64,000 nt of DNA from an uncultured Cytophagia bacterium (lineage in GTDB: Bacteria > Zhuqueibacterota > Zhuqueibacteria > Oceanimicrobiales > CAZGRP01), in the NCBI GenBank assembly GCA_964527995.1, contig CAZGRP010000004.1, positions 20,230 to 84,229 on the forward strand. Direction: 5' to 3'. The translations under genes and the position numbers were made by a program. Under the pieces are notes generated by a model. The model made no database searches and was not told the DNA's origin. It was given only the letters and a program-made list of their open reading frames with translations. Shown here in pieces: positions 1-44,827 of the stretch (the first letter of the stretch is position 1; each line of letters begins with the position of its first letter).

Positions 1-81
1 GGGCATCGATGCAACCTGGAAAGAGGGCTACCCACAGCCTCTGGCTATGTCGGAGGAAATCATCAAGAAGGTGGATCGTAA

Positions 82-1983
82 ATGGCAGAGCTACTGGAGA
101 TAAAGTTTCGCGACCGTCGCCTGGCGCCGATCTGGGAGAAGGTGCAGCAGGGCGAGCGTCTTTCGTTGCAGGATGGGGTGACGCTGTTTGAGACGGACGA
201 TCTGCTGTCGCTTGGGAAGATGGCCCAGGCGGTGCAGCGCGAGAAGAGCGGTGATGCCGTCTATTTCGTTGTCAACCGCCAGATCAATCCGAGCAACATC
301 TGCGTGCTGTCGTGCAAGTTCTGCGACTTCGCCGCCAAGCCGGGCGACCCCGACGCCTATGAGATGACCCTCGATGAGATCCTGGCCAAGCTGAACCCGG
401 AGCTGCATGAGGTCCACATCGTCGGCGGACTGCATCCGCAGTGGCCCTGGGAGTTCTACCTGGAGATGATGCGGCGGATCAAAGAGGCCTTTCCCAGGAT
501 CGACATCAAGGCGTGGACCGCCGTGGAGATCGATTTTTTCTCCAAGAAATTCAAGCTACCGATCCCCGAGGTGCTGCGCCAGCTCAAGGAGGCCGGCCTT
601 TCCACCATGCCGGGAGGCGGTGCCGAGGTGTTTTCGGAACGTGTCCGCAAGCTGCTGTTTCATCAGAAGATCGGCGCCAAACGCTGGCTGGAAATCCACG
701 AGGCCGCCCATCGTCTCGGCATCCCGACCAACGCCACTCTGCTCTACGGCCATGTCGAGACCTTCGACGAGCGGGTAGAGCACCTGATCAGACTGCGCCA
801 GCAGCAGGATCGCAGCGGCGGGTTTCTCAGCTTTATCCCACTGGCCTTCCAGCCTGGAGATACGGGCATCAAGGATCGCCAGACCTCGGCTGTGGATGAT
901 CTGAAGACCATCGCCGTATCGCGGCTGATGCTGGATAATTTCCCGCATATCAAAGCCTACTGGATCATGCTCAGCGCTGAGGTGGCACCCGTGGCCCTGG
1001 ACTTCGGCGCCGACGACATGGACGGCACGGTGGGCGAGGAGCGCATCGCCCACGCTGCCAAGGCGACCAGCCCGATCGCCCTGGCCAAGGACCACATCGT
1101 TCGCATGATCCGCAGCGCCGGCAAGGTGGCCGTGGAGCGCGACATTCTCTACAACCCTATCGCTGTCTACGGCGATTTCCCGATCGGCAAGATCCCGTAC
1201 CTCAACTGCGTGCCGATCTATCGCCGCTTCCAGCCCAGGCCCTTCAAGCAGGTGCCGATGTCGCCGCGGCAAATGGGGCGGCTGGCGGAAGATCGGCAGA
1301 TCGACGGCGGGCCGCTGTCGCTGATGGACTACTTCGCCGTCGCAGACGATTACGTGATGCTCGACTACTGCATCGCTGTGCGCGACCTGGCGCGCAGCGT
1401 CGTGCTCTATTCCAACTTTGCCTGGCGCGACCTGGACGGAAAGCGCATCGGCATCACGGCCGAGACATCCACCTCGATCGAGCTGCTGAAGGTTCTTCTG
1501 CGCCAGAAATATCGCATCGCCGCCCGGCTGGAGCGCATGCACCCGGTCTTTCAGGCGGCCGAGGCGGAGGGGTTCGATGCCGTGCTGGTGATCGGCGATG
1601 AGGCGTTGCGAAGGTCGAAGTCGGGTCTGGCAGGGTTCACCTTCGGCTTCGACCTGGGCCGCGAGTGGTATGAATGGACCGGGCTTCCCTTCGTCTTTGC
1701 GGTCTGGGCCGTGCGTCGCGACCTGGCGGCTGAGATGAAGGCCCTGCTGGCGCAGCGACTCGAGGAGGCCGCTCGCAGCGCCGACAACCGCCATGCCGAT
1801 TTCGGCACCCACCACGGCCGGCGCCTGGGGTTGACGCCCACCGAGGTGCAGGTCTACCTCAACGGCTTCATCTATCGCGTCGGCGAGAAAGAGCGACGGG
1901 CCATCGAGCTTTTTCAGACCTTTCTCGGCCGCAGGGAGTCTGTGACGGCGGTAAGTCGGGTGGGTGAAGGTGATGCGGAATGA
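82..1983 (+). CDS. Radical SAM futalosine-pathway enzyme (MqnE/MqnC family; CxxxCxxC = CVLSCKFC) fused to C-terminal MqnA-like (chorismate dehydratase, PBP-fold) domain
   Basis: N-terminal ~370 aa carry the radical-SAM Cys triad and the GGLHPQ, MPGGGAEVF and FIPLAFQP motifs typical of MqnC/MqnE. C-terminal ~260 aa carry the IPYLNCVPIY and GITAETSTS motifs typical of MqnA. ATG at 82. Confidence 0.7.
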   Translation: MAELLEIKFRDRRLAPIWEKVQQGERLSLQDGVTLFETDDLLSLGKMAQAVQREKSGDAVYFVVNRQINPSNICVLSCKFCDFAAKPGDPDAYEMTLDEILAKLNPELHEVHIVGGLHPQWPWEFYLEMMRRIKEAFPRIDIKAWTAVEIDFFSKKFKLPIPEVLRQLKEAGLSTMPGGGAEVFSERVRKLLFHQKIGAKRWLEIHEAAHRLGIPTNATLLYGHVETFDERVEHLIRLRQQQDRSGGFLSFIPLAFQPGDTGIKDRQTSAVDDLKTIAVSRLMLDNFPHIKAYWIMLSAEVAPVALDFGADDMDGTVGEERIAHAAKATSPIALAKDHIVRMIRSAGKVAVERDILYNPIAVYGDFPIGKIPYLNCVPIYRRFQPRPFKQVPMSPRQMGRLAEDRQIDGGPLSLMDYFAVADDYVMLDYCIAVRDLARSVVLYSNFAWRDLDGKRIGITAETSTSIELLKVLLRQKYRIAARLERMHPVFQAAEAEGFDAVLVIGDEALRRSKSGLAGFTFGFDLGREWYEWTGLPFVFAVWAVRRDLAAEMKALLAQRLEEAARSADNRHADFGTHHGRRLGLTPTEVQVYLNGFIYRVGEKERRAIELFQTFLGRRESVTAVSRVGEGDAE

Positions 1984-2146
1984 TGGAGGGATGGAGTGGT
2001 GGATTTGTGGAGTGGTTCGAACACGTTTGTTAGGTTCGCGTGAGAGGAAAGCAGGCGCCTCTGGAGGAAACTCGATGACTTCATTCCTCCATCGCTCCAG
2101 TTGGGTCGTTTGCTCTCGATTGCCTTCTTGAAGAATCGGAGGAAAA

Positions 2147-3292
2147 ATGCAGGACCTGGCAGTTGAATCGTTGCTAGCAAAAGCCCACGAAGGAGAACGG
2201 CTCTCCCCAGAAGAAGGCTTGGCCCTGCTGCGTGAGGCCGAATTGCTCGACCTCGGTGCCGCTGCGGAGGCGGTGCGTTATCGCCACAATCCGCGGCCGT
2301 GGGTGACCTTCATCGTCGATACCAATCCCAACTATACCAACGTCTGCAACGTCGACTGCATCTTCTGTGCTTTCTATCGACACGAGGGCGAGGAGGGTGC
2401 CTACACCTATTCCGTGGACGAGATGATCCAGAAGTTCAAGGAGATGGTGCCGTTGGGGGTGACCACTGTGCTGCTCCAGGGTGGTGTGAATCCGAACCTG
2501 CCCTTCGACTACTACCTGGAGCTCGTCCGCAGGACAAGAGCCGAGGTGCCGGAAATCCATCCCCATTTCTTCTCGACATCGGAAATTATCGGCGTGGCCG
2601 AAGTGTCTGGCCTGTCGATCCGCGAGGTGCTGCAGCAACTGTATGAGGCTGGGTTGAGAACCATCCCGGGAGGCGGTGCCGAAATTCTGGCCGATCGCGT
2701 CAAGAAGAAGATCAGCCACAAGAAGGGCACGTCCGATGACTGGCTCGAGGTGATGCGCCTGGCCCACCAGATCGGCTATCGCACCACGGCCACGATGATG
2801 TACGGCCACCTGGAGCGCGACGAAGAGATCATTGAGCATCTGGAACGCATTCGGGCGCTGCAAGACGAGACCGGCGGCTTCACGGCCTTCATCCCGTGGA
2901 GCTTCAAGCCCGGGAACACACCGTTGGAGAAGATCATCCCCACCTACGCCACGCCGAATCGCTATCTGCAGATGATTGCTCTGTCACGCATCTACCTCGA
3001 CAACTTCCCGCACATCCAGGCGTCCTGGTTCTCCGAGGGCAAGAAGATCGGCCAGGTGGCGCTGCATTTCGGCGCCGACGATTTCGGCGGCACCTTGGTC
3101 GAAGAGAATGTGCACAAGGCCGCCAACTTCGTCAACACCACCTCCACCGAGGAGGTCGTCTCACTCATCCGGGAGTCTGGTTTTGTGCCTGCCCAGCGGA
3201 CGACGCTGTATGAGGTGGTGAGAGTGTATGAGAACGGAGGGGCGGGAGTTAGGAAGCAGGAATCAGAAGGTAGTATCGCGAATCAGGTCTAG
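2147..3292 (+). CDS. Radical SAM menaquinone-biosynthesis enzyme, MqnC/MqnE family (paralog of previous gene)
   Basis: CNVDCIFCAF radical-SAM motif. Overall collinear similarity to the N-terminal domain of the preceding ORF (GGVNPNLP, IPGGGAEIL, FIPWSFKP, ALHFGADDFGGT). Confidence 0.7.
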   Translation: MQDLAVESLLAKAHEGERLSPEEGLALLREAELLDLGAAAEAVRYRHNPRPWVTFIVDTNPNYTNVCNVDCIFCAFYRHEGEEGAYTYSVDEMIQKFKEMVPLGVTTVLLQGGVNPNLPFDYYLELVRRTRAEVPEIHPHFFSTSEIIGVAEVSGLSIREVLQQLYEAGLRTIPGGGAEILADRVKKKISHKKGTSDDWLEVMRLAHQIGYRTTATMMYGHLERDEEIIEHLERIRALQDETGGFTAFIPWSFKPGNTPLEKIIPTYATPNRYLQMIALSRIYLDNFPHIQASWFSEGKKIGQVALHFGADDFGGTLVEENVHKAANFVNTTSTEEVVSLIRESGFVPAQRTTLYEVVRVYENGGAGVRKQESEGSIANQV

Positions 3293-3381
3293 GTAGCAGA
3301 GAGCCAGCTCGTCGGTGAATTGCATTCATCGACGCCCCCTTGAACCGGGCTCTCTGAAAAGGTGAGAAAGAATCTTGATTT

Positions 3382-3472
3382 GTCATTCCTGCGAAGCTTG
3401 TCCTCGCGAAGGCGGGGAGCGGGAATCCAGAAAAGTAAATAAGTTATAGATTCCCGCTTGCGCGGGAATGAC
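3382..3472. repeat. Nested inverted-repeat (REP/MITE-like or structured RNA) element in convergent mqnC-mqnD intergenic region
   Basis: gtcattcctgcg (3382-3393) pairs with cgcgggaatgac (3461-3472). gcgggaatc (3420-3428) pairs with gattcccgc (3449-3457). There is a local 8-bp hairpin attcccgc-ttgc-gcgggaat, followed by an aaaaag-tagg-cttttt A/T hairpin. Confidence 0.5.
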
Positions 3473-3676
3473 AGAAAAAGTAGGCTTTTTGGACAGCCTC
3501 TCGCTCTAGCCTGTCGGAAAGACGGGAATCATGCCGTCCTTTCTCAGGATCTCTCCCTCGTCAGTTCCTTCCAGCAGTTCCTCTGGGATCAGCAGAACTT
3601 GCTCAGCTACTTTTGCCCTCATCGGCGTTGCATTCATGAAGAGCCGGGCTGAAACCCAAAACCCAAAACCCGAAAC

Positions 3677-4513
3677 CTAGTACAGCAGCACCTCCGGCTT
3701 CGACGGAATGATGCCGCGCTCATGGGCTCGCTGGAACAGCAGCTCCAGAGCCTGCCTCCCGGGTTCGCCCATGTCGATAGTGACCTCGTTCACATACATC
3801 TTCACGAATCGTGTGCCCAGGTCGGTATCGATGCCGCGGCCGAATTCGAGCGCATACGGAATCGCTTCCTCCTGGTGAGCATAGCCGTACTCGATACTCT
3901 TGCGAAGCGCGGCAGAGATGCGGCCCGCCAGGTCCTCTCCCAGGTCTGACCGCACCACATCCAGTCCCAGCGGCAGTGGCAGCCCGCCACTCTCCTCTTG
4001 CCAGATCTCTCCAAAGTCTGCCACTTTATGAAGGCCGAACTCGCGGTAGGTGATTTGACCCTCGTGGATCAGCAGTCCGGCATCCACCTGGCCGTCGAGC
4101 ACGGCGTCGATGATCTGGTCGAACGGCATTTGAACGGCCTGAGCTCCGTCGGTGTAGATCTGAAAGAGCAGATAGGCGGTCGTCAGCTTCCCGGGGGTTG
4201 CCACCCGGCGGCCGCGCAGATCTTCCAGGCGGTCGACCTCTTTCGCCACGATGATAGGGCCGTAGCCGTCGCCCATGCTGGCTCCGGTGCGCATGATCCA
4301 GTAGTGGCCGGCAACGTAGGGGAAGGCATGAGCCGAAATCGCCGTCACCTCCAGCTCGGCGCGCAGAGCCCGTTCGTTGAGGCTCTGGATGTCCTCCATG
4401 ATGTGCTCGATCACGAAGTCGTCCAGGCTGACCTTGCCGCTGGCCAGGCCGTAAAACATGAAGGCGTCGTCAGGGTCGGGGCTGTGACCGACGCGCAATA
4501 ATCTTCCTGTCAT
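3677..4513 (-). CDS. mqnD: 1,4-dihydroxy-6-naphthoate synthase MqnD
   Basis: N-terminal LRVGHSPDPDDAFMFYGL matches the MqnD signature (GxSPCPND-F-F). Start chosen at MTGRLL (4513); the ORF extends to 4549 with alternative ATGs at 4528 and 4549. Confidence 0.7.
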   Translation of the reverse strand: MTGRLLRVGHSPDPDDAFMFYGLASGKVSLDDFVIEHIMEDIQSLNERALRAELEVTAISAHAFPYVAGHYWIMRTGASMGDGYGPIIVAKEVDRLEDLRGRRVATPGKLTTAYLLFQIYTDGAQAVQMPFDQIIDAVLDGQVDAGLLIHEGQITYREFGLHKVADFGEIWQEESGGLPLPLGLDVVRSDLGEDLAGRISAALRKSIEYGYAHQEEAIPYALEFGRGIDTDLGTRFVKMYVNEVTIDMGEPGRQALELLFQRAHERGIIPSKPEVLLY

Positions 4514-4545
4514 TTCTTTGCACTCCATGTGTGATTGTGACCCGA

Positions 4546-4791
4546 TCATCGACCCTTTGAGAGTCCGGGCGGAACCCGACCGCGCAGCAGGCTGACCAGA
4601 GTTTCGAAGTCTCTGCCGACGATGACTTCGCCGTTCCGGATCCGCCGGGCGAATTCGCTGGCCTTGTCCTGCAGCATGTGTGGGCTTTTGACTCGAGGAT
4701 CTTTGAGCAGCTTCTTCAGGTTGCGCTCCAGCACTTCGATGACCTGCTCGCGCTCCTCGATGGTGGCACGGCTGTAGTCGGCGACACCCAT
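4546..4791 (-). CDS. Hypothetical small protein (81 aa), no recognisable domain
   Basis: High GC3 coding frame. ATG (MGVADY) lies 10 nt after the stop of the upstream small ORF. Could be one frameshifted gene together with 4802-5032. Confidence 0.3.
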   Translation of the reverse strand: MGVADYSRATIEEREQVIEVLERNLKKLLKDPRVKSPHMLQDKASEFARRIRNGEVIVGRDFETLVSLLRGRVPPGLSKGR

Positions 4792-4801
4792 GTCAGCGCA
4801 C

Positions 4802-5032
4802 TCAACGACCGGCGACAGTGCTCGCTGCGCCGCCGTCCTGTGTGCGCCGCGGGGATTGAGAAGCGCCGTTCTGATCGCCTGTCGCCGCTGCCGGCTGGCG
4901 GGCGAGGACATACCCGCCTGGCTTGATATCCACAGGAATGTCGCATTGCGACAGATTCGTGGCGCCCATGATCGCCAGAACCAGCAAGAGGAGAAACAGC
5001 ACCAGAGCCATGGCGGGCGAAGGTTCTTTCAT
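4802..5032 (-). CDS. Hypothetical small membrane/secreted protein (N-terminal hydrophobic helix AMALVLFLLLLVLAIMGA)
   Basis: ATG at 5032 preceded by GGAGG (rc of 5041-5045) with an 8-nt spacer. Strong GC3 bias. Hydrophobic N-terminus. Confidence 0.3.
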   Translation of the reverse strand: MKEPSPAMALVLFLLLLVLAIMGATNLSQCDIPVDIKPGGYVLARQPAAATGDQNGASQSPRRTQDGGAASTVAGR

Positions 5033-5356
5033 CGATGGAGCCTCCAGATAGGGCCTTGAAGCTGCAGTTGGAAATCCTGCCACGCAATCGATAGGCAAAG
5101 GTAAGAGATTGAGTCACGGAACGCAACCAGATTCTTGTAGAAATCCTGTACCTGCCGCGCCGCCCGCGACAGACCTGCCATCGGTGGATGACATTCTTTC
5201 CCACTGGAGTCGGAGCGATGGCTGAAACTGTGGCAGAAAGTTCTGAAAAATGTTCCGAGCGTTCTGGTTCAGGAGGATGAACAGGGAGCGCCGTAAGCAA
5301 GTTCTTAAGTTTCGTAAAAACACTGAATTGGATTGGTTGGTTTTCGGCGGTTGTTC

Positions 5357-5372
5357 TGGCACGCGGGTTGCA
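5357..5372 (+). promoter_or_regulatory. Sigma-54 (RpoN) -24/-12 promoter: TGGCACG-cggg-TTGCA
   Basis: Exact match to YTGGCACGrNNNTTGCW. GG at 5358-5359 and GC at 5370-5371 (12-nt spacing). It lies ~70 nt upstream of the first hsp20 start. Confidence 0.55.
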
Positions 5373-5446
5373 AAATGCAACTACGAAGGATCATGTTCAA
5401 CAGCATGGACGTGATCGACCTACGAGAGGTAAGGAGGTGAGTGGCA

Positions 5447-5893
5447 ATGCTGGAGACTTTGAGTCCTGTTCTCAGGTCGGAGCCGTTCAGGGAATTGGCC
5501 CGGCTACGTGAGCGGCTGGATCGGATGCTGGAGGACCTTATGCGCATGGAGCCGAGCGCGCGCTGGGAGTACAACTTCCCGCCTTGCAACCTGATCAACA
5601 CCGATGATGAGCTGGTTCTCTATTGTGAGCTCCCTGGCGTCAGCCGCGAGGACTTCCATGTGGAGGTCATCGACAACCGCCTGATGCTGCGTGGAGAAAA
5701 GAAGTTTCCAGAGTTGCCTGAGGGCGCCCATTGGGTGTGCAATGAGCGCAGCTATGGCCAGTTCAATCGCAACATCGAGCTTCCATACCCTGTCGATCGC
5801 AGCAAGGTGAAGGCCACATTCCACGATGGGGTCCTGGAAGTCCATCTGCCCAAGACCGATGAGGTTCGGGCAAAGGAGATCGAGGTCCGTTGA
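5447..5893 (+). CDS. Hsp20/alpha-crystallin family small heat-shock protein
   Basis: Alpha-crystallin domain architecture. AGGAGG at 5433-5438 sits 8 nt before ATG 5447; the ORF begins at GTG 5441. Confidence 0.85.
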   Translation: MLETLSPVLRSEPFRELARLRERLDRMLEDLMRMEPSARWEYNFPPCNLINTDDELVLYCELPGVSREDFHVEVIDNRLMLRGEKKFPELPEGAHWVCNERSYGQFNRNIELPYPVDRSKVKATFHDGVLEVHLPKTDEVRAKEIEVR

Positions 5894-5989: not shown

Positions 5990-6433
5990 ATGTTGGAAAG
6001 GTATGAGCCCGCCCTGGCTACGGAGCCGTTCGAGGGGCTCCGCACGATCCGCAGCCGGATCAATCGTCTGTTCAGTGAACTGTTTCCCGAGTTCGAGCGT
6101 ACCGAGGAGTGGTTCTATCCGACCTACGACATGATCGACACCAAGGACGAGGTCGTGCTCTTCGTCGAGCTGCCGGGGGTCGGCAAGAACGATTTCAAGC
6201 TGACCGTGAACAATGACATTCTGACCATCAGCGGCGAGAAGAGAAGGGTGGACATGCCCGAAGGGGCCAGCCGGCTGCGCAACGAAATCACCTACGGGAA
6301 TTTCAATCGGCAGATCCGGCTGCCCTATCCCGTCGATGCCGACATGATCAAAGCGGAGCTGCGCAACGGCATGCTGACCATCCACCTGCCCAAGAAGGAA
6401 GAGGTCAAGCCTAAGGAGATTCCGGTCAGCTAA
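5990..6433 (+). CDS. Hsp20/alpha-crystallin family small heat-shock protein (tandem paralog)
   Basis: Collinear with the previous protein (VELPGV, ELPYPVD, L..HLPK). RBS caaggaggtg before the ATG. Confidence 0.85.
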   Translation: MLERYEPALATEPFEGLRTIRSRINRLFSELFPEFERTEEWFYPTYDMIDTKDEVVLFVELPGVGKNDFKLTVNNDILTISGEKRRVDMPEGASRLRNEITYGNFNRQIRLPYPVDADMIKAELRNGMLTIHLPKKEEVKPKEIPVS

Positions 6434-6456
6434 CGAATGCCTGATCCTCGGTCAGT

Positions 6457-6511
6457 GCAGGCGGGCTTCCTTCCGGCGACAGTCGGATGGATGTCCCGCC
6501 TGTTTTTATTT
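6457..6511 (+). terminator. Putative rho-independent terminator of hsp20 operon
   Basis: Stem gcaggcggg (6457-6465) pairs with cccgcctg (6495-6502), followed by tttttattt (6503-6511). The loop is large. Confidence 0.45.
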
Positions 6512-6595
6512 GCTGCCAGGTCGGCGAGCGAACTTTCAGGCCTCATGCCTGGTTGTATTTCAACAGAGAGAAAACACGGTTGGTTGGTGAAGAGG

Positions 6596-8461
6596 ATGAG
6601 GCTGAAATCAAAAATTGCCATCATCTTCGTGTTGTTGGTGATTCTGCCGCTTGCCGCCGGGATCGTCGTGTCCTTGCACGCTCTCAGCGGCTATCTGTCT
6701 TTTCAGCAATATGCGGTGATTCGGCAGACGGCGGAGCAGCTCGACGATCTGATCGGTCTGGAGAAGGAGGACGTCCAGGCGATCGTCGAGGTGCTGAGTG
6801 GCACCCGTGCAGTGCGGCAGGCGGTGGCTGAACGCGACGTGAATCGGTTGCGCCTGCTGGCTCGAATCTATCAGCGTCTGGCACGTGCCGATATCGTCGA
6901 GTTTCGCGACACGGACGGCCGACTTCTTCTGCGTCGGGAGCGCCGCGGGGCTGAACTTACGCAAGATGTTCATCCCGGACCGTGGCGGGCGCCGGAGAGG
7001 CCCTCGGTTGATATTTATCCGGAGCGAGGCGAGGTGGTGATCCGGGCTACTTCGCCCGTTTTTTTCGCCGGCAAGCTGGTTGGCTCGGTGTCGGTCGCGG
7101 AGCGCCTGTCGCGCGAATTCATCGAGCGGTACAAGAGGGAGATGGGACTTGAGGTCGCCATCCTGGGGCGCAATCGCGTGCTCTACTCGACTCTGAAGGG
7201 ACTACAGTTGCAGGCCCTGCCGTTGGCCGCCATCGAGTCGGCGCGCAGACAGTCCTACGGCCGCACGCGGGTTTCTGGCAAGACCTATACCATGGCCGCC
7301 TACCCGTTGCTGGGCTCCGACGGACGCTATCAGGGCGCACTGCTTCTTTTTCAGATCGAGACCACGTTTCGAGCGGCAGTGGCGCGGGCGCGCCGGGCGA
7401 TTGCCCTGGCTGGAGTGCTCTCGCTTACCTACGCCCTGGGCGTTGGCTACGTGGCGACGCGGCGACTGCAGGCCCCGATTTTCGAGCTGCAACAAAAGAT
7501 GCATCAGGTGATGACGGGCAATTATGACGTCGAGGTGCGCGTCCGCACCTCGGATGAGTTCCGCGACCTCGCCGAAGGTTTCAACAGAATGTTGAACCAG
7601 ATCCGCCGGTCCCGAGAGCATTTGCGCATTCAGAACCAGCGACTGCGGGCTTTCGCCAGAGCCATGCAGCGCGAGCTGGACGTAGCCGGGCAGGTTCAGT
7701 CTCTGTTGATCCCGGAAGAGTACACCGACGACCGGGTCTCCGTCAGGGTGCAATACTTCCCGATGCTGCGGGTTGGTGGGGATTACGCTTATTTGCATAT
7801 GAGCGACGAAGGAGTCGGGTATTTCATCATCGCCGACGTGTCGGGGCATGGGGTAGCTGCCGCCCTTCTGATGAGCAGAGTCAGTGCCGAGGTTGAGAAT
7901 CTGGTGCGCAGCGACGCACCGATCGCTGATCTGATTTCGCATCTGAACCGTTTCATCTACGAAAACTTTTCTTCCACAGGGATGTACGTGACCTTCTTCT
8001 GTGCCCGTGTTCAGTTTCAGACGGGATGGATCGAGTATGGAAATGCTGGCCATCCGGCACAGTGGCTGTTTCGAGCCCGTGCTGACGAAGTCGTGGAGCT
8101 GCCTGCCCTGAACCTGCCGCTCGGTGCCTTCCCAGCGGAAACATTCGGCGAGCCCATGACGAAGACCGTTCCGTTCGAAGTCGGCGACCGCTTCTTTCTA
8201 TTCACCGACGGCATGTTCGAGGTCAGCGACCCCGAGGGGAACCCTCTCGGGCTCGGACGCCTGCGAGGGATTCTCGAGGAGGCTCTGAGACACTCCGAGG
8301 AGGTTCCCATCGAGTACGTGGTGAACGCCGTGAAGAAGTACAGCGGCGGCCGTTTCGAGGACGACGCGCTGTTCGTGTCGGTACGATTCCTGGGTGGGCC
8401 GGCGAGGCCGGAACCGGTGGCAGCGGCAGCGGCGGAGGCTGTCGGGGCAGAGAAGGTATGA
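6596..8461 (+). CDS. Membrane sensor protein-serine phosphatase, PP2C/SpoIIE family with HAMP linker (RsbU-like)
   Basis: Domain order: TM helix (IAIIFVLLVILPLAAGIVVSL), ~250-aa extracytoplasmic region, second TM, HAMP-like segment (DEFRDLAEGFNRMLNQI), then PP2C motifs (GGDYAY, IADVSGHGVAAALLMS, FLFTDGMFE). Start ambiguous: GTG 6587 or ATG 6596. Confidence 0.75.
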   Translation: MRLKSKIAIIFVLLVILPLAAGIVVSLHALSGYLSFQQYAVIRQTAEQLDDLIGLEKEDVQAIVEVLSGTRAVRQAVAERDVNRLRLLARIYQRLARADIVEFRDTDGRLLLRRERRGAELTQDVHPGPWRAPERPSVDIYPERGEVVIRATSPVFFAGKLVGSVSVAERLSREFIERYKREMGLEVAILGRNRVLYSTLKGLQLQALPLAAIESARRQSYGRTRVSGKTYTMAAYPLLGSDGRYQGALLLFQIETTFRAAVARARRAIALAGVLSLTYALGVGYVATRRLQAPIFELQQKMHQVMTGNYDVEVRVRTSDEFRDLAEGFNRMLNQIRRSREHLRIQNQRLRAFARAMQRELDVAGQVQSLLIPEEYTDDRVSVRVQYFPMLRVGGDYAYLHMSDEGVGYFIIADVSGHGVAAALLMSRVSAEVENLVRSDAPIADLISHLNRFIYENFSSTGMYVTFFCARVQFQTGWIEYGNAGHPAQWLFRARADEVVELPALNLPLGAFPAETFGEPMTKTVPFEVGDRFFLFTDGMFEVSDPEGNPLGLGRLRGILEEALRHSEEVPIEYVVNAVKKYSGGRFEDDALFVSVRFLGGPARPEPVAAAAAEAVGAEKV

Positions 8462-8633
8462 TGCGGGTGGTAGCCGGACCCGGAGCGGCCGAAGCGAGGC
8501 AACGGCGGGACTTTGATTGATTCAGGTTGATTTTTTAAGGACAGTTGGGTACATTAGGTACTGTTATGTCAACAGCCCGGCAGGCTTTTCTGAGGCCAAC
8601 CGGGCAATTTCATACGTCGTCAGGAGAGAACTT

Positions 8634-9050
8634 ATGGATGTCGGCACCCTTCGTTTGCCCATCGCGAGCCTGAAGCCGCATTCGCCTATTTGTGTTTCGA
8701 TGGGGACCTCCGTCTTGGAGGCTGTACGCAGGATGAATGACCAGCACATCGGCTGCCTTTGCGTCGTTCGCGACGGCGTTCTTCAGGGCATCGTGACAGA
8801 AAGAGACGTCCTCACCAAAGTGGTGGGCAGACGCCGCGACCCGAAAGGGCTGAAAGTTGAAGATATCATGACGCCGGACCCAGAGTATCTGTGGGAGGGA
8901 GACACGGTGGCGTTCGCCCTGAACCGCATGCACGTCGGCGGCTTTCGGCATGTGCCGCTTATTGATGGCGCAGGACGGCCGACGGGCATCATATCGGTCA
9001 AGGACATCGTGGCTCACCTGACACAGTGGTTCGAGGCCGGGCGAAAGTGA
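8634..9050 (+). CDS. CBS-domain pair protein
   Basis: Two CBS repeats (VRDGVLQGIVTERDVL; HVPLIDGAGRPTGIISVKDIV). AGGAGA lies 5 nt before the ATG. Confidence 0.7.
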   Translation: MDVGTLRLPIASLKPHSPICVSMGTSVLEAVRRMNDQHIGCLCVVRDGVLQGIVTERDVLTKVVGRRRDPKGLKVEDIMTPDPEYLWEGDTVAFALNRMHVGGFRHVPLIDGAGRPTGIISVKDIVAHLTQWFEAGRK

Positions 9051-9132
9051 TCGATGGAGGCGTTTGCGTGGCGCCCACGGGGCTGGCACGGTTTGCCAGC
9101 GGCGGCCGCCATCCGGCCAACCGAGCTGTGAG

Positions 9133-9696
9133 ATGAAGGAAGAACTGGAGGATTCGGCGGTGGAATTATTTGAGTTTGACGACGAGTTTCAAGAGTGGCA
9201 AGAGGAGATCGACGAGGCCGAGCAGAAGCTGTCGAAGGAGGCACTCCTCGAGCCAGTCACGGCGCTGCCTTTGAGGGATCCGACCACTCTGCCCGCCGGT
9301 GCCAGCGTCATCGAGGCCGTGGATCTGCTGGTGCGAGAGAGCGTCGGCGCGGTGCTGGTAGTGCGTGAGGGCCATCTGGAGGGTATCTTTTCAGAGCGCG
9401 ACCTTCTGCGCCTCCTGTCCGAGCCGGACGCGGATCTTTCCGCGACCAGGGTCGATCAGGTGATGACCCGCGAGCCACAGTCTTTGCGAGCAGACAATTC
9501 GATTGCCGACGCCTTGTCGTTGATGCATCGCGGCGGCTATCGCCACGTTCCGATTGTAGATGAGGAGCGCAGGCCTGTGGGGATTGTTTCGGTGCGCGAT
9601 ATCGTCGGCTACATTGTCGACTATTTCCCGCAGGAGGTGCTCAACCTGCCGCCTCACCCGCTGCATCGCGGAGCCAGGGAACGTGAGGGGGCATGA
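9133..9696 (+). CDS. CBS-domain pair protein with acidic N-terminal extension
   Basis: CBS repeats (VVREGHLEGIFSERDLL; HVPIVDEERRPVGIVSVRDIV). The ORF extends to TTG 9064. Confidence 0.6.
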   Translation: MKEELEDSAVELFEFDDEFQEWQEEIDEAEQKLSKEALLEPVTALPLRDPTTLPAGASVIEAVDLLVRESVGAVLVVREGHLEGIFSERDLLRLLSEPDADLSATRVDQVMTREPQSLRADNSIADALSLMHRGGYRHVPIVDEERRPVGIVSVRDIVGYIVDYFPQEVLNLPPHPLHRGAREREGA

Positions 9697-12789: not shown

Positions 12790-13890
12790 ATGGAGAGGCA
12801 TGCGATCATCATTGTCGGCTCGGGCCCGGCCGGAGTGAGCACGGCGGCAGCTCTTTACCATCGAGCTCCGCTGCTCGCCGAAGACCTGCTGGTGCTGGAA
12901 AAAGCGTATCACCCGCGCGACAAGCTGTGTGGCGGCGGACTGAGCGGATGGGCGGATACGCTGCTGGCAGAGCTCCGCCTGCAGCCCCAGGTTCCTTCTG
13001 TGCGGATCGAGCAGGTCCGTTTCTATTTGGAAGATGAGCCGATCACGTTCACCCGCAAGAACATGCTGCGTATCGTTCGCCGCAGCGAATTCGACGCTGC
13101 TCTGGTTGCCGGTCTGCGGGAATACGGCGTCGAGGTGCGCGAGGGCGAGCAGGTGGTCGATGTCCACCGTGACGGCAATGCCATCGTCCTGGAAACCCAC
13201 CATCGCACCTACGTGGCGACGGTTGTGGTCGGTGCCGATGGCGCAAAGAGTGTCGTGCGGCGAAAGCTGATTCGCGACTCGCCTTCGCGGGTGAGCCGCC
13301 TGATGGAAGTGCTCGTGCCGGTGGACCCTGATCGCACCCCCGAATTCCGGGAGAAGATGGCTGTGTTCGATTTCCGCCCGAACCGTTGCGGGTTGCAGGG
13401 CTACCTGTGGGATTTCCCGAGCCTGGTAAACGGCAAGCCGCACCTGAACATCGGAGCTTTCGACAGCCGGGTGATCGAAGGGCAAAGGGCGGATATGAAG
13501 GCACTTCTGAGCGACAGGCTGGAGGCACGCGGTCTGGCCAGCGAAGAAGTTCGCTTCGAGGGGCATCCGGAGCGCTGGTTCGATCCACGCGGCGTCTACT
13601 CGGCGGCCAACGTCATTCTGGTGGGCGACGCTGCCGGCATCGAACCGTGGCTGGGTGAGGGGATTTCGATGTCGCTTGCCTACGGTCCGGTTGCGGCCGA
13701 GGCCATCGTGGCCGCCTTCGAGAAGGATGACTTTTCCTTTTCCCACTATCGATCGTACATTCTGCGAAGCTCGCTCGGCCGCGTGCTGCGACGGAATCAG
13801 CGTATTGCCAGATATTTCTACCAGCCCAAGTTGCGTCCTCTGCTTCCGGCTTTTGGAAGAATGCTGAAGTGGGTGTATGAGCACGGATGA
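12790..13890 (+). CDS. FAD-dependent oxidoreductase (geranylgeranyl-reductase-like family)
   Basis: N-terminal IIIVGSGPAGVSTAAAL Rossmann dinucleotide-binding fingerprint. Internal GDAAG motif. Confidence 0.65.
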   Translation: MERHAIIIVGSGPAGVSTAAALYHRAPLLAEDLLVLEKAYHPRDKLCGGGLSGWADTLLAELRLQPQVPSVRIEQVRFYLEDEPITFTRKNMLRIVRRSEFDAALVAGLREYGVEVREGEQVVDVHRDGNAIVLETHHRTYVATVVVGADGAKSVVRRKLIRDSPSRVSRLMEVLVPVDPDRTPEFREKMAVFDFRPNRCGLQGYLWDFPSLVNGKPHLNIGAFDSRVIEGQRADMKALLSDRLEARGLASEEVRFEGHPERWFDPRGVYSAANVILVGDAAGIEPWLGEGISMSLAYGPVAAEAIVAAFEKDDFSFSHYRSYILRSSLGRVLRRNQRIARYFYQPKLRPLLPAFGRMLKWVYEHG

Positions 13891-17223: not shown

Positions 17224-19827
17224 ATGCCTGCACAACCGGAGGGAGCGATGTGCCATTTCAAAGGTATCCGTTCCACCTGGCGGCGCCTTGCCGCCGGTGT
17301 TGTGGCTGCACTTCTTTTCACCAGTCCTTCCCCTCTGCTGTTCGCGCAAATCACCTTCACCGAAGTGATGTTCGACCCCGCTGGACCGGAGTCGTCGGAC
17401 GAGTTTGTCGAGATCCTCAACCTGAGCGGCACCGACAGCGTCGATCTCAGCGGCTGGTGGTTCAGCGACGGCCGTGCCGTCGATTCCCTGCACGATGCCG
17501 GCAACGGCCTGGTCCTGGCCCCGGGGCAATATGCGCTGATCCTGGATCCAAGCTATTTCGGCAAGTCGACGTCCTACGACGCACTGATTCCCCAGGGTGC
17601 GCTGGTGTTGACCCTGGACAACGCCACTTTTGGCAGCGGCGGCCTCAGCAACAGCGTGGCGCGCACCCTGGTGCTCGGCGACGCCGCCGGCGATACGGCC
17701 TCGGTCTATACCTACTCCCTGGGCAACGCGCCCGGTCACTCGGACGAGAAGATCGATCCCACCGGCGCCAATACACCCGAAAACTGGGCGGATAGTCGCG
17801 TGTTCAACGGTACGCCCGGCGGTCCGAACAGTGTTACCCCTCCGGAGGTCGATCTGGCGCTGGGTCCGGCCGCCCCACGGTGGCAACCCGAACGGCCGCG
17901 CCAGGGCGACATCGTGGAGATCGAGATGGAGGTGAGCAACTTTGGACTTCGACCGGTGCCAGGCTATCGCCTGAGCCTCTACGACGACGCCGATCGCGAC
18001 TCGGTGGTTTCCGACGCCGAGCTGGTTCGGTCGGTGGAGGCCGGACCGCTGTCGCCGGGAGCCACGCAGCGTCTGTTTCTCGAATGGGATCGGCCTGACG
18101 CAGGAGGTCACTCTCTTCTGGCTCGCCTCGAAGCAGACGGCGATCTTCGCGCGGAAAACGACACGCTCTGGTTCCAGTTGATGATCGGCTTCCCGCCGGC
18201 TGCGCTGGTGATCAACGAATTCATGTACCGGCCGTTCAGCGGCGACCCGGAGTGGGTCGAGCTTTTCAATCCAGGCCCAAAGGCGATCGATCTGCGTGGC
18301 TGGCGGCTGAGTGACGCCGACGTCGACCGTCCGATTTCTCTGACCGAAGAGATGCTGACCGTCGCTGCCGGCAGCTACCAGGTGGTTGCCTCGGCCGTCC
18401 CTCTGAGCGCCGCATTCGCCGGCCGCTCCGACAGTGTGCTGGTGCCGTCCGGTCGTTTTCCTACCCTCAACAATACGGAAGATGAAATCGTGCTGTTCGA
18501 TCCACTGGGCTTCACCATCGACAGCGTCGCTTACACTTCCTCCTGGGGAAAGGAGACAGGCCGATCGCTGGAGAAGATCTGGTTCGAACGGAGCGGCACG
18601 GATCCCGGCAACTGGGCAGCAAGTCGTGACTCGCTCGGAGCGACGCCGGCCCGGCTCAACAGCGTCAGCCCGAGGAGCTTCGACGTCGCCGTCCGCGCCA
18701 GCGAAATCCTCTTCTCACCCGAACAGCCGGCCGCAGGCGAGGCCATTCTCCTGACAGTGCCGGTGCGCAACCTGGGACGGCTGGCGGTCGATGGTGTCGA
18801 AGTCATCGTTTTTGACGACCGCGACGGAGACCTGCGGCCTGACCCGCAGGAGGAGCTGGCGCGCCGGTCCCTGACACAGCCGCTCGAAAGCGACGAGTTG
18901 GAGAATGTCGAGTTCGATCTTGGTTCGCTCTCTTCCGGGTGGCACCTGTTGCTGATCGAAGTCCGCCTTCCGGCAGATCAGCGAATTGAAAACAACCTGG
19001 CGAAGGTCGAATTGGCCGTTGGCTATTCTGCCCTGGCGGTGGTGGTCAACGAGGTCATGTTCGATCCCCAAACGGGGCAGAGTGAGTGGGTCGAGCTGTA
19101 CAACCGCAGCCCGGAAGCAGTCGACTTGCGGAACTGGCAACTTGGGGATGCCACGGGGACTGCTCCTCTTCCCCAGCGGTCGCTGCGGCTGCCGGCCGGC
19201 GGCTTTGCCGTTCTGGCCCCCGATTCGTCTGTGCTCGGAAGGTACGGAGGTTTCGAGGGTCTTCTCGTCACGTTCAGAAACTTTCCGGCATTGAACAACA
19301 ACGCCGACAGGGTGGAGATCTGCGACATGCACGGTTTCCGCATCGACGCCATGGCGTACCGCGGTGCCTGGGGTGCGGGTCCGGGGATTTCACTGGAGCG
19401 CCTCCATCCCGATCTCGCCAGCGACGACAGCACCACCTGGTACCCGAGCGTCGCTCCGGCAGGGGCGACTCCTGGCAGGGTGAACAGCATCTTCATCCAG
19501 GTGAAACCTGCGACCACGACGCTGGAGGTTCATCCGAACCCCTTTTCGCCGGATGGCGACGGTGTCGAAGATTTCGTCGTCGTGAGTTTTCGCCTGCCGC
19601 AGCCGACGGCGAGTGTCAATCTGAAAATCTACGATATGCGCGGGCGACTCGTGCGCCAATTGCTCAACAATGCCGCGACGGGGGCCGAACGGCAGGTGGT
19701 ATGGGACGGCCTCAACGGCCGCGGCGAACCACTGCCGACGGGCATTTACATCGTCTACCTCCAGGCCATTCGCCCGCAGAGCGGCTTCTTGCGGGCGGTC
19801 AAGAAAACGGTCGTTCTGGCTCGCTAG
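17224..19827 (+). CDS. Secreted protein with three lamin-tail-domain (LTD) repeats and a T9SS/FlgD-Ig-like C-terminal domain
   Basis: Signal peptide (AALLFTSPSPLLFAQ). Three repeats of the ITEVMFDP...EFVEL-N form (at aa ~45, ~330, ~610). C-terminal LEVHPNPFSPDGDGV...IYIVYL resembles T9SS sorting or FlgD Ig-like domains. Confidence 0.7.
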   Translation: MPAQPEGAMCHFKGIRSTWRRLAAGVVAALLFTSPSPLLFAQITFTEVMFDPAGPESSDEFVEILNLSGTDSVDLSGWWFSDGRAVDSLHDAGNGLVLAPGQYALILDPSYFGKSTSYDALIPQGALVLTLDNATFGSGGLSNSVARTLVLGDAAGDTASVYTYSLGNAPGHSDEKIDPTGANTPENWADSRVFNGTPGGPNSVTPPEVDLALGPAAPRWQPERPRQGDIVEIEMEVSNFGLRPVPGYRLSLYDDADRDSVVSDAELVRSVEAGPLSPGATQRLFLEWDRPDAGGHSLLARLEADGDLRAENDTLWFQLMIGFPPAALVINEFMYRPFSGDPEWVELFNPGPKAIDLRGWRLSDADVDRPISLTEEMLTVAAGSYQVVASAVPLSAAFAGRSDSVLVPSGRFPTLNNTEDEIVLFDPLGFTIDSVAYTSSWGKETGRSLEKIWFERSGTDPGNWAASRDSLGATPARLNSVSPRSFDVAVRASEILFSPEQPAAGEAILLTVPVRNLGRLAVDGVEVIVFDDRDGDLRPDPQEELARRSLTQPLESDELENVEFDLGSLSSGWHLLLIEVRLPADQRIENNLAKVELAVGYSALAVVVNEVMFDPQTGQSEWVELYNRSPEAVDLRNWQLGDATGTAPLPQRSLRLPAGGFAVLAPDSSVLGRYGGFEGLLVTFRNFPALNNNADRVEICDMHGFRIDAMAYRGAWGAGPGISLERLHPDLASDDSTTWYPSVAPAGATPGRVNSIFIQVKPATTTLEVHPNPFSPDGDGVEDFVVVSFRLPQPTASVNLKIYDMRGRLVRQLLNNAATGAERQVVWDGLNGRGEPLPTGIYIVYLQAIRPQSGFLRAVKKTVVLAR

Positions 19828-22155: not shown

Positions 22156-22980
22156 ATGAGCGAATTGCGGCAGAAGATCGAGGAAGCGGGCGCTTTTCTG
22201 AAGTCACAGACGGCCCTCCAACCTGAAATCGGCATCATCCTTGGGACGGGTCTTGGTGCGCTCGCCGAAGAGATCGACAAGGAGAGCGTGGTGTCGTACA
22301 AGGACATTCCTCACTTTCCGTTGTCCACCGTCGAAAGCCACGTCGGCAGGCTCATCTTCGGCCATCTGGGCGGAAAGCGGGTGATGGCCATGCAGGGTCG
22401 CTTTCACTACTACGAAGGCTACTCGATGCAGCAGATCACCTTCCCGGTGCGGGTGATGAAGCATCTCGGAGCCCACACCCTTTTGGTCTCCAACGCCGCA
22501 GGTGGCCTGAATCCGCTCTTTAGCGCCGGCGATCTGATGATCATCGTCGATCACATCAACCTCCTCGGCGACAATCCGCTCATCGGTCCCAACGACGACG
22601 CCCTGGGGCCACGTTTCCCCGACATGTCCGAGCCGTATACTCGCAGCCTCATCGAGCTGGCCGAGCAGGTGGCCCTCGACGAGAAGCTCCGTGTCCAAAA
22701 GGGGGTCTACGCCGCGATGACGGGGCCAAATCTCGAAACCCGCGCCGAATACCGTTTCCTGCGCCTGATCGGTGCGGACGTGGTCGGCATGTCGACGGTG
22801 CCCGAGGTCATTGTCGCCGTCCACAGCGGCATGAGGGTGCTCGGCCTGTCGGTCATCACCGATATGTGTCTGCCAGACGCCCTCAAGCCTGTGGTCATCG
22901 AGGAGATCCTGAAAACCGCCGGTGAGGCCGAGCCACGCCTGACGCGGTTGATGGCACGTGTGGTCGAGCGTATGGAGTGA
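22156..22980 (+). CDS. Purine nucleoside phosphorylase (PunA/PNP family I)
   Basis: GIILGTGLG, then SxxxHxGRLxxG, then [10 protein letters not shown], then [12 protein letters not shown] motifs. Confidence 0.75.
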
Positions 22981-31164: not shown

Positions 31165-32538
31165 ATGCATCCGACATCGATCCAGCATTGCAAGAACCAC
31201 CCTCGGCGCATCGCCAGGCGTAAGTGTTTTCGTTGTGGCGAGGCGCTCTGCCCCGAGTGCCAGATACGCGCACACCACCACTTTTTCTGCGGCCAGACGT
31301 GCCGTTTTCTTTTCCTGGCAGAGCGCTCGGTAGATCGCGCCGGCGCTCCCTTCCGGGTTTTTTTTGCGAAAGTCCGACGGGCTGGCCCCGGCCTGGCCCG
31401 TACACTTCTACCGTATTCGCTGCTGGCCGCTGGGGTTGTGCTGGCTCTGGCCTGGTCGAGGCAGCTTCGAAATGATGTTGAGCAGCTGCGCCGCGATCTC
31501 CAGGACGTCCGCACTGCCAGGGCCCACGATGGCGCTTCCGCCGGCACTGCCGGCAAGCTGACGATCACCCAGCCCAGCCAGGGCGCCATGGTGACCCTCA
31601 ACCGGGTCACCATCGAGGGGGAGGCGGAGCCCAACAGAATCATCAGTCTTTCGTCAGGCGACCGATTGCTCGCCGTCACCCTGGCCCGCAAAGGGCGCTT
31701 CCAGTTCAAAGACATCCCTGCCCGCCGGGGACGGAATCGCCTCGAGGTGCGCGCCATCTCGTCCGACGGCAAGGCGACGATGCTGCAGATCCTGGAATTC
31801 GTCTACAACAACCCGACCGTTGCCTACCTGGCACGAAACTTCACGCGCGGCGATCCGGGGCGCCCGCTGGTGGCGTTGACCTTCGACGGTGGCTCCGTGG
31901 CGAACGTCACTCCCGAGATTCTGGATATTCTGGCAGAGAAAGGCGTCCGGTGCACGGTCTTCCTCACAGGCGAGTATATGACCCGCTTCCCCGATTATGT
32001 CAAGCGCATCGTCGCCGACGGCCACGAGGTCGGCAACCACACCTGGTCGCATCCACATCTCACCACCTACGAGGAGAGCCGCACACAGCAGACGCGGCCG
32101 GAGGTCGATCGCGCTTTCGTGCAGGGCGAACTGCGGCGCACAGCCGACTATTTCCGCCAACTGACCGGCGCCGAGATGCAGCCGTTCTGGCGCGCGCCCT
32201 ACGGCGAGCACAATCTGGAGATCCGCGAGTGGGCGGCCGAACTCGGGTACCGTCACATCGGGTGGACCCACGGCCGCGACTGGCAGCAAAGCATGGACAC
32301 GCTCGACTGGGTGGCCGATCCGACCTCGCCCGCCTATCACTCGGCCGATGAGATCTACGATAAGATTCTCGCTGCGGCGCAACGGGAGCCGAACGGACTC
32401 AACGGTGCCGTCATCCTCATGCACCTGGGCTCGCTGCGCAACGGAGATTTTCCGCATCGAAAGCTCCCCGGTCTTATCGATCAGCTACGTGAGCTGGGTT
32501 ACGAATTCGTTCCGGTCTCCGAGCTGGTCGATCGCTGA
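31165..32538 (+). CDS. Polysaccharide deacetylase (NodB-homology) family protein with N-terminal Cys-rich zinc-finger and one TM segment
   Basis: N-terminal CFRCGEALCPECQ...FFCGQTC. TM helix LLPYSLLAAGVVLALAW. C-terminal ALTFDGG, HEVGNHTWSHP NodB motifs. Confidence 0.7.
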   Translation: MHPTSIQHCKNHPRRIARRKCFRCGEALCPECQIRAHHHFFCGQTCRFLFLAERSVDRAGAPFRVFFAKVRRAGPGLARTLLPYSLLAAGVVLALAWSRQLRNDVEQLRRDLQDVRTARAHDGASAGTAGKLTITQPSQGAMVTLNRVTIEGEAEPNRIISLSSGDRLLAVTLARKGRFQFKDIPARRGRNRLEVRAISSDGKATMLQILEFVYNNPTVAYLARNFTRGDPGRPLVALTFDGGSVANVTPEILDILAEKGVRCTVFLTGEYMTRFPDYVKRIVADGHEVGNHTWSHPHLTTYEESRTQQTRPEVDRAFVQGELRRTADYFRQLTGAEMQPFWRAPYGEHNLEIREWAAELGYRHIGWTHGRDWQQSMDTLDWVADPTSPAYHSADEIYDKILAAAQREPNGLNGAVILMHLGSLRNGDFPHRKLPGLIDQLRELGYEFVPVSELVDR

Positions 32539-32703
32539 GGTTCGTTGCTGACGCGGCGGCGTTACAGCTGAATCCACCGCTTGTTGGCCTGCGCTGGAGT
32601 GGCGCAGAGAATGCCGGTTGATTTTCGCCAAGGTATTGCTTATCTTTTTGATGATGAATCGCCCCGTGGTTGGATCCTCTGGCGGCAAGAAAGGTGGTTG
32701 GAC

Positions 32704-33516
32704 ATGAGCGAAGAAAAGCGTATACCCAGGAGCAAGGACATTTCCCCGATTTTGCGAGGCTGGGAATTTCGTCCGAATGAAATCGTGGTGAGGAAGATAC
32801 GCGGCCTCGATGGCCGGCCGAAGATCCAGATGCGCATCGACCTTGGACTGATTCAGATGGAGGCCGACGGGCGTCCGGATGGCAAGCGGCCCAACGGCAG
32901 GGAGTCGTACCTGCACTACTACCTCGCCAAACTGGCCGCCTACAAGCGGAGGACCGGCAGCGACGACGGTTTCGTGCTCGACGAGGAAGACTGCATGAAA
33001 CTGAGGGCGGAAGCGATTCAGTACTACCACCGCTATGTCAGTCTGTTTCATCTCGGCGACTACGAAGGTGTGGCGCGCGATACCGAGCGCAACCTTCGCG
33101 TCCTCGACCTGGTGCGCAGGTACGCCGAAGACGAGGAACTGGTGTGGATGTTCGACCAGTACCGCCCTTACATTTTGATGATGAACGCCCGGGCCCGCGG
33201 CGAGCTCTGCCTGAAACGCAAGGACTTCGACGGTGCGCTGCGCATCGTCGAGGAGACCATGCGCAAGATTGCCCGCTTCTACAAAGAGTATGATGTGGAT
33301 GAGGCCGGCGACCGCAGCCCGGAGATCAACTTCCTGGAAGATTGGGCGGAGGACATCCGCGATCAACGGCCGATGAGTGTGCGCGAGAAGCTGCAGGAAC
33401 AACTCCGGCAGGCGGTCGCAGAAGAGAAATACGAGCATGCCGCTATCCTGCGCGATGAACTTCGCCGCCTCGACAAACAGACTCCTGCCGGCGCCAATAA
33501 ACACCTGGAAGGGTGA
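32704..33516 (+). CDS. Hypothetical protein with C-terminal UVR (UvrB/UvrC) motif
   Basis: EKYEHAAILRDELRRL near the C-terminus. The ORF extends upstream to 32581. Confidence 0.5.
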   Translation: MSEEKRIPRSKDISPILRGWEFRPNEIVVRKIRGLDGRPKIQMRIDLGLIQMEADGRPDGKRPNGRESYLHYYLAKLAAYKRRTGSDDGFVLDEEDCMKLRAEAIQYYHRYVSLFHLGDYEGVARDTERNLRVLDLVRRYAEDEELVWMFDQYRPYILMMNARARGELCLKRKDFDGALRIVEETMRKIARFYKEYDVDEAGDRSPEINFLEDWAEDIRDQRPMSVREKLQEQLRQAVAEEKYEHAAILRDELRRLDKQTPAGANKHLEG

Positions 33517-33714
33517 GAACGGCGCCTGAATCTCCATTGGTAAGATCCGGTACGCCCAGTACCCGTAGCCACGGATCGACATTGTCCCACATACGACTCG
33601 AAAGAGCGTCCATGTCAGTCCGTGGTTCATTCTTTGTAGGAATGAATTGCCCGGTTTTTCGACAGCGGGAAGAGCCAGGCAGGCCGGTTTCACGAAGGAC
33701 AGCGAGGAGAAGCG

Positions 33715-44491: not shown

Positions 44492-44736
44492 GATGTTCTG
44501 TCTGGTGGATCGCCGGCCAGCAGAGGGCCGGTTGGTGAGTGTGACTCGCATGGTTGGCTGCGATTCCAGCTCATGATGGTGCATGAAAACCGCCCGAGCG
44601 ATAGCTGGCAGTCGAGCTCGCCGAGGCCTGGATTCAAGATATACCAGCTCTAGAGTGAATATAGGCTTTTGGGTCAAAAAAGCAAGGATGAAAGGGCAGA
44701 GGGAACATCCGACAGGCCGAGCTTGGCAAGAAAACG

Positions 44737-44765: not shown

Positions 44766-44827
44766 AACAGGTTGAACCAGCTACCCACCTCCTTTCTGGT
44801 CCAACCGAAGCAGCAGAAGGAGTCCTT

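Follow-up and report, generated by a model that had tools for sequence, protein, structure and literature searches.

A single gene near the start of a 64,000-nucleotide stretch of DNA (hereafter the window) from an uncultured Cytophagia bacterium (GenBank assembly GCA_964527995.1, contig CAZGRP010000004.1, positions 20,230 to 84,229) encodes a protein in which the aminofutalosine synthase MqnE is predicted to be covalently joined to the chorismate dehydratase MqnA. We read this protein as a bifunctional MqnE::MqnA enzyme of the futalosine (Mqn) route to menaquinone that belongs to a lineage of single origin and lies in a conserved operon, and on the sequence evidence we give this reading as a whole a probability of about 90%. 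The gene is a single uninterrupted open reading frame (ORF) with a junction of fixed length, is nested within a clade of fused proteins, and is part of an operon of the type P-X-L-[E::A]-C (ubiA/mqnP-ubiX-ubiD/mqnL-fusion-mqnC).

Domain assignment and junction of the fusion protein

The N-terminal half matched the NCBIfam model for MqnE (TIGR03700) with 489 bits over aa 17–360, above the curated cutoff of 434.55 bits. The MqnC model (TIGR03699) gave 365.6 bits, under its curated cutoff of 428.1 bits, and the possibility that this half is MqnC was ruled out by the two scores. Pfam placed a Radical_SAM domain followed by CofH_C on the same half. The structure of Pedobacter heparinus MqnE (6XI9) was matched in sequence at E = 2.7e-88, and a Foldseek comparison of a structure model of the window protein with 6xig/6xi9 gave E = 5e-31, a target template modelling score (TM) of 0.81, and 40% identity. 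The three cysteines of the CX3CX2C motif (C74, C78, and C81) were invariant across 64 fusion proteins (alignment A1). The initial annotation had preferred MqnE over MqnC on account of the fusion itself; the domain's own profile score and the Pedobacter structure match bore this out, confirming independently of the fusion argument that the N-terminal domain is a predicted aminofutalosine synthase MqnE. Characterised MqnE proteins (TIGR03700; 6XI9/6XIG; the Thermus/Streptomyces SCO4494 type) share the full-length match, the motif, and the fold with the window protein. However, they are stand-alone proteins of ~350–390 aa, whereas the window protein runs on into a second enzyme, with ~5 residues between the last conserved MqnE residues and the first MqnA strand.

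The C-terminal half was matched by PF02621 (Pfam) with 182 bits over aa 368–612, covering profile positions 3–247 of 252, and carries the motif IPYLNCVPIY at aa 371–380. The spans of TIGR03700 and PF02621 agree with the earlier proposal of a full radical-SAM domain joined to a full MqnA-type domain, and the score settled that the C-terminal half belongs to the MqnA/MqnD family. Since PF02621 includes both MqnA and MqnD, the two enzymes were compared through solved structures. MqnA entries (7ahr, 2nxo, 2i6e, and 6o9a) matched at E-values of ~1e-25 to 2e-25 and the MqnD entry 2czl at 9e-9, a preference for MqnA of ~16 orders of magnitude. In Foldseek, the target TM was 0.74–0.85 for nearly all MqnA chains (0.75 for the lower-coverage 2nxo_D), 0.68 for MqnD 2czl, and 0.76 for the MqnD-like 1zbm, a value within the lower part of the MqnA range. 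Judged from these values, the split between MqnA and MqnD is cleaner by sequence comparison than by fold.

Residues Asn17 and Ser86 of ScMqnA, reported to be absolutely conserved in MqnA and to abolish activity when mutated (PMC9672406), correspond to N375 and S439 when mapped through the HMMER alignment. For the 3-enolpyruvyl-benzoate (3-EPB) site, whose residues were taken from the same source, Pro41 corresponds to P395, Thr59 to S413, Ser109-Ser112 to T462-S463-T464-S465, Ile150/Gly151 to I504/G505, and Phe186/Ala187 to F537-A540. All of these pocket equivalents are invariant or conservative (S413 being a Thr to Ser exchange), and N375, S439, S413, P395, T462/T464/S465, I504/G505, and P536-A540 were invariant in the 64 fusion proteins. 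Because these active-site residues and the three cysteines of the MqnE half are invariant, there is no sign in the sequence of degeneration in either half.

That the C-terminal domain might instead be MqnD-like, or a non-catalytic module for ligand binding or regulation, could be argued from the breadth of PF02621, from the identity of only ~24–30% to solved MqnA enzymes, and from the faster divergence of this half than of the MqnE half. However, sequence favours MqnA (2e-25 versus 9e-9) and so does the fold, apart from the overlap of 1zbm; the 3-EPB pocket is invariant, as are the catalytic Asn and Ser; and a dedicated mqnD lies 1.7 kb away, while no other MqnA-like gene was found within ~8 kb in the fused loci described below. 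We consider a domain other than a working MqnA very improbable. MqnD in particular was ruled out by the E-values together with the fold comparison, and the C-terminal half was confirmed, as far as homology can predict it, as chorismate dehydratase MqnA. It resembles MqnA of S. coelicolor (SCO4506; 7AHR/2NXO) and D. radiodurans (DR0370; 6O9A/2I6E) in its flytrap fold, its Asn/Ser pair, and its pocket. Unlike these enzymes, it lacks a separate start codon and is appended to the C-terminus of MqnE.

Across 30 aligned fused proteins, the junction followed the consensus ERDxxYNPxxxxxx and then directly (V/I)IGKIPYLN. It was gap-free in 28 of the 29 proteins other than that of the window, the exception being L033 with a 3-residue insertion. 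An AlphaFold2 model built with 64 homologs had a mean predicted local distance difference test (pLDDT) value of 78.7 and a predicted TM (pTM) of 0.81, with pLDDT of 86–92 over aa 350–370. The JGI metagenome contig L001, an independent assembly, matched the window with 99.6% identity (52 mismatches over 11,983 nt); within the fusion gene 8 nt differed, of which seven were silent and one changed an amino acid, and the frame was kept.

Separate mqnE and mqnA genes could in principle have been joined through a mistake in sequencing or assembly around nt 1150–1250, since in related lineages the two genes overlap or lie 0–50 nt apart and one indel could fuse them. However, the non-identical assembly L001 has the same frame, as do 34 species-level genomes that come from many different studies and each of the 120 top protein clusters, and the junction alignment contains no indel apart from that of L033. 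Such an artefactual read-through is effectively refuted, and the fusion is real. No frameshift or stop near 1150–1250, a risk raised by the initial annotation, occurred in the window, in L001, or in the 34 genomes, which makes a stop at the junction in the raw reads very unlikely.

Distribution and origin of the fused family

The 120 best matches among 5.8 billion protein clusters were examined for domain architecture. All 120 carried PF04055, PF19288, and PF02621, with identities of 60–77% and lengths of 616–666 aa, apart from one 534-aa fragment. Contigs from one genome per species were also searched with a junction-spanning query (aa 281–460), and the best 80 loci were re-analysed by tblastn. 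A single ORF crossed the junction in 34 loci (the fused loci); 10 loci had adjacent separate mqnE and then mqnA, and 36 had a lone mqnE, defined by the lack of mqnA within ~8 kb. Loci L035–L041 and L074, considered as possible fusions in other phyla, were rejected because they have separate adjacent genes in other frames or with an intervening stop. Among representatives at 50% identity, the junction query recovered 7 clusters at E ≤ 1e-30, suggesting that the fusion clade is populous but shallow in diversity.

By its genome labels (Ignavibacteriota, Ignavibacteriae, 'Bacteroidota' metagenome-assembled genomes, and candidate division KSB1), the fusion clade is assigned as Ignavibacteriota/KSB1-type. 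The locus nearest to the window, L002, showed 78% identity in the MqnE half and 65% in the MqnA half, and a KSB1 metagenome-assembled genome was also close. The initial annotation had considered the fusion to be no standard annotated architecture. Its unusualness did not hold, as the architecture is present in all of the best homologs and in 34 of the 80 loci, and the Pfam domains of both halves are precomputed for these proteins. The naming part of the claim stood: where NCBI and JGI give a name, it is 'aminofutalosine synthase MqnE' alone.

Fusions of the same kind were also found in more divergent proteins. P0125 (632 aa) is encoded on two independent contigs (L083 6001–7899 and L084 4392–6290) and P0149 (648 aa) on L082 6001–7947; the two proteins show 37% and 47% identity across the junction. 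The MqnA half of P0149 matches S. coelicolor MqnA at 1.5e-41. Both proteins sit in the same kind of futalosine operon as the window fusion. That of P0125 has the same P-X-L-[E::A]-C type, and that of P0149 is rearranged (UbiD-UbiA-UbiX-[E::A]-MqnC); a UbiE-type methyltransferase is encoded 3.4 kb further downstream of the latter. On these sequences, P0149 may represent a second, independent fusion event. Other putative combinations among metagenome proteins, each known from a single representative, were MqnE then MqnC (P0131, 733 aa), MqnD then MqnE (P0260, 773 aa), and MqnE with PF02621 and an extra CofH_C (P0195, 906 aa). The occurrence of several fused Mqn domain combinations suggests that the fusing of operon neighbours is not exceptional. 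A further single representative, P0166 (704 aa), is a putative MqnE with an unassigned C-terminal extension of ~350 aa.

When MqnE domains were placed in a neighbour-joining tree (MqnC of the window as root, no bootstrap), the fused proteins grouped in one clade, within which the window protein and L002 branch first. L035 is sister to this clade, with L036 and L037 next, and each of these loci has adjacent unfused genes. Unfused mqnE and mqnA overlap by 11 nt in L035 and meet as ATGA in L036 and as TAGATG in L038, as in translational coupling. L035 has the order E-A-C with mqnD on the opposite strand, as in the window. An 'mqnEAC operon' is described for the Firmicutes Pelotomaculum, Syntrophomonas, and Thermosinus (PMC4746308). 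The separate-gene operons of these taxa, of Dehalococcoidia-labelled L035, of Eisenbacteria L036, and of the Myxococcota-type L038–L041 have the order mqnE, mqnA, mqnC in common with the window. However, they keep a stop between mqnE and mqnA, which the window lineage has lost.

Because the tree neighbours have overlapping or abutting separate genes, we infer that the mqnE stop codon was lost once, in an mqnEAC operon whose mqnE and mqnA were translationally coupled. The resulting fusion would then have been inherited through the Ignavibacteriota and KSB1-type lineage. The E-A-C order of L035, with mqnD opposite, makes such a single stop loss the simplest reading. A single origin is well supported by the tree and the gene order, although not proven.

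Menaquinone genes around the fusion and other genes of the window

The second radical-SAM protein of the locus scored 480.6 bits with TIGR03699, above the cutoff, and contains Radical_SAM and CofH_C domains and the cysteine motif, identifying it as MqnC. The second PF02621 protein (257.5 bits) matched 2czl/3a3u (TTHA1568) at 3e-61 and 1zbm (AF1704) at 7e-77, with no MqnA structure among its PDB matches, and was identified as MqnD with TTHA1568 as the closest MqnD. These matches uphold the view that most of the pathway is encoded locally. The positions given earlier for the three ORFs were likewise correct, the end at 4513 being the internal Met start of the 278-aa mqnD called by JGI (Table 1).

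Table 1 Features of the futalosine locus at the start of the window
Feature	Position	Strand	Basis
UbiD-family decarboxylase (MqnL-like), 3' end	1..103	+	stop TAA 101-103; L001 equivalent
mqnE::mqnA fusion gene, 633 aa	82..1983	+	open reading frame, domain matches, conserved architecture
MqnE domain, aa 1-362 (radical-SAM TIM barrel and CofH_C region)	82..1167	+	TIGR03700, PDB 6xi9, Foldseek
Radical-SAM [4Fe-4S] motif CVLSCKFC, C74-x3-C78-x2-C81	301..324	+	translation
Junction YGDFPIG, aa 361-367	1162..1182	+	alignment of fused proteins, AlphaFold2 pLDDT
MqnA domain, aa 368-612, periplasmic-binding-protein (Venus-flytrap) fold	1183..1917	+	PF02621, PDB MqnA entries, Foldseek
Asn375 codon	1204-1206	+	predicted catalytic residue
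Ser439 codon	1396-1398	+	predicted catalytic residue
mqnC, 381 aa, motif CNVDCIFC	2147..3292	+	TIGR03699, Radical_SAM and CofH_C
mqnD, 278 aa from internal Met (frame open to 4549, 290 aa)	3677..4513	-	PF02621, PDB 2czl/3a3u/1zbm, JGI gene call

The local pathway is fuller than the initial annotation had noted, with genes for a UbiA-like prenyltransferase, UbiX, and UbiD directly upstream of the fusion on L001. As L001 and the window are nearly identical, we assigned these P-X-L genes to the window locus. The best NCBIfam match of the prenyltransferase was a UbiA-like subfamily, and the MqnP models scored ~200 bits, below their cutoffs. UbiD lies at 6293–7909 of L001, its end corresponding to window position 103, and shares 22 nt with the start of the fusion gene. 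Its best model, TIGR03701 ('menaquinone biosynthesis decarboxylase'), gave 455 bits, below the curated cutoff of 495.9 bits, on a gene call that looks N-terminally truncated. Within L001 6005–6293, the reading frame stays open from 6005 on; it codes for an N-terminus typical of UbiD and then, just before the called start, for a Gly/Pro-rich repeat insert (GPLTGPSGAGPLMGPSGAGPLTG).

The P-X-L-[E::A]-C operon with mqnD opposite was recurrent across the fused loci: mqnC lies downstream of the fusion in most of them, and mqnD occupies the same place on the opposite strand in many. Scanning window positions 1–5500 for promoters and terminators gave no signal exceeding the shuffled background. Directly upstream of mqnD, a 121-aa ORF (4546–4911, minus strand) overlaps the longer mqnD ORF at ATG and had no Pfam or NCBIfam match; JGI calls two small ORFs (81 and 76 aa) in its place. 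A PNP_UDP_1 gene at 22156–22980 (plus strand) was considered as the missing MqnB/MTAN and rejected, as it matched purine nucleoside phosphorylase NF006054 with 390 bits. It sits in a YggS-DivIVA-PNP-IleS neighbourhood.

Elsewhere in the window, two tandem HSP20 small heat-shock genes (5441–5893 and 5990–6433) precede a dCache-HAMP-SpoIIE (PP2C) phosphatase gene (6437–8461), after which come two CBS-domain genes (8517–9696). The plus-strand gene at 12790–13890, between genes for a 2-oxoacid:ferredoxin oxidoreductase beta subunit and a glycerol-3-phosphate dehydrogenase-like protein, encodes a 366-aa protein with a weak FAD_binding_3 match (E = 3e-9); its product could be a candidate enzyme of the geranylgeranyl-reductase type. 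Three lamin-tail domains occur in an 867-aa protein (17224–19827, plus strand) together with a C-terminal sorting domain for type IX secretion (CHU_C/FlgD_ig), the latter being consistent with a host of the FCB group (superphylum). In the Pfam scan of window ORFs, two minus-strand ORFs of 516 aa (43415–44965) and 402 aa (32485–33693) had no match at E ≤ 1e-5.

Predicted function and significance of the fusion

The fused protein is predicted to catalyse the first two committed steps of the futalosine route. Its C-terminal MqnA domain would close on chorismate and dehydrate it to 3-EPB. The [4Fe-4S] cluster of the MqnE domain, held by C74/C78/C81, would cleave S-adenosylmethionine (SAM), and the resulting 5'-deoxyadenosyl radical would combine with 3-EPB to give aminofutalosine. 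This scheme follows the chemistry described for the separate enzymes in PMC9672406, namely a substrate-assisted elimination of chorismate to 3-EPB inside the closed flytrap of MqnA and, with the MqnE literature cited there, the addition of the SAM-derived radical to 3-EPB. Because both active sites are intact, the fused protein should convert chorismate and SAM to aminofutalosine.

Several points weigh against our reading of a bifunctional enzyme in a local pathway. The absence of a stand-alone mqnA refers to the ~8-kb surroundings of the fused loci, and neither MqnB/MTAN nor the final C-methyltransferase was found among the window ORFs scanned. Within the clade, identity to the window protein is 38–65% in the MqnA half versus 66–84% in the MqnE half; this faster divergence could be a sign of relaxed constraint, even though the active-site residues do not vary. 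In addition, no biochemical data on any member of the fused family were found in the literature.

The fusion could bring a kinetic benefit through a fixed 1:1 stoichiometry, proximity, or hand-over of 3-EPB, and substrate channelling, which the initial annotation drew from the fusion, is plausible. The short conserved linker, the confidently modelled junction, and the product bound by MqnA are hints in its favour. In the strongest form, a linker of near-zero and invariant length would lock the flytrap on the MqnE barrel, and 3-EPB, which MqnA encloses fully and is slow to let go, would pass between the sites without entering solution. We regard such obligate channelling as rather improbable; if true, the fusions would bring to light a transient MqnA-MqnE complex that forms even where the two genes are separate.

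We give even odds to the view that the fusion is near-neutral, a fixed accident of stop loss in which the domains work independently and 3-EPB diffuses without channelling. Its origin in one simple step from translationally coupled genes fits this view, as do the other Mqn fusions (MqnE-MqnC, MqnD-MqnE, and the triple protein), which suggest that operon neighbours fuse readily, and the fact that most lineages manage with separate or even unlinked genes (lone mqnE in 36 of the 80 loci). The same observations weaken the need for channelling. However, a linker so short and so constant in length, together with a two-domain model of good confidence (pTM 0.81), suggests a fixed interface instead of a flexible tether, MqnA is described as burying and co-purifying with 3-EPB by authors who proposed channelling (PMC9672406), and a similar fusion recurs in the very divergent P0149 with its rearranged operon.

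A known parallel is the FO synthase CofGH (FbiC), a fusion in the same radical-SAM subfamily, since enzymes of the CofH/MqnC/MqnE group occur either separately or fused with a pathway partner. CofGH combines two radical-SAM domains and is a named bifunctional protein, with a dedicated NCBIfam model ('bifunctional CofGH', NF006687), whereas MqnE::MqnA combines a radical-SAM enzyme with a non-redox dehydratase, and no dedicated model or name was found for it. NCBIfam release 20 had no match on the MqnA half or on the stand-alone MqnD, which probably explains why the fused proteins are named only as MqnE. A literature search of partial coverage found no paper describing an MqnE-MqnA fusion, although the MqnE discovery paper might mention fusions. 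The accessible parts of PMC3937554, PMC3914697, PMC6189191, PMC6302742, PMC4746308, and PMC9672406 do not describe one; the nearest published items there are the mqnEAC operon (PMC4746308) and the speculation on channelling (PMC9672406).

Neither the two enzymes and their pathway nor the operon order are new, and the architecture is abundant in public databases. The window gene is an additional member of a populous, under-described fused family and by itself adds little to what is known of the two enzymes. In Helicobacter, Campylobacter, and Chlamydia, the futalosine pathway attracts interest as a target for antibacterial agents. For this family, the fused protein offers a convenient target for the structure of a two-enzyme assembly. 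As a natural Rosetta stone, it also ties MqnA to MqnE, supporting the published idea that MqnA passes its tightly bound product on to the next enzyme. Because the names given to these proteins mention MqnE alone, reconstructions of the pathway in Ignavibacteriota and KSB1-type genomes may count mqnA as absent when it is in fact there.

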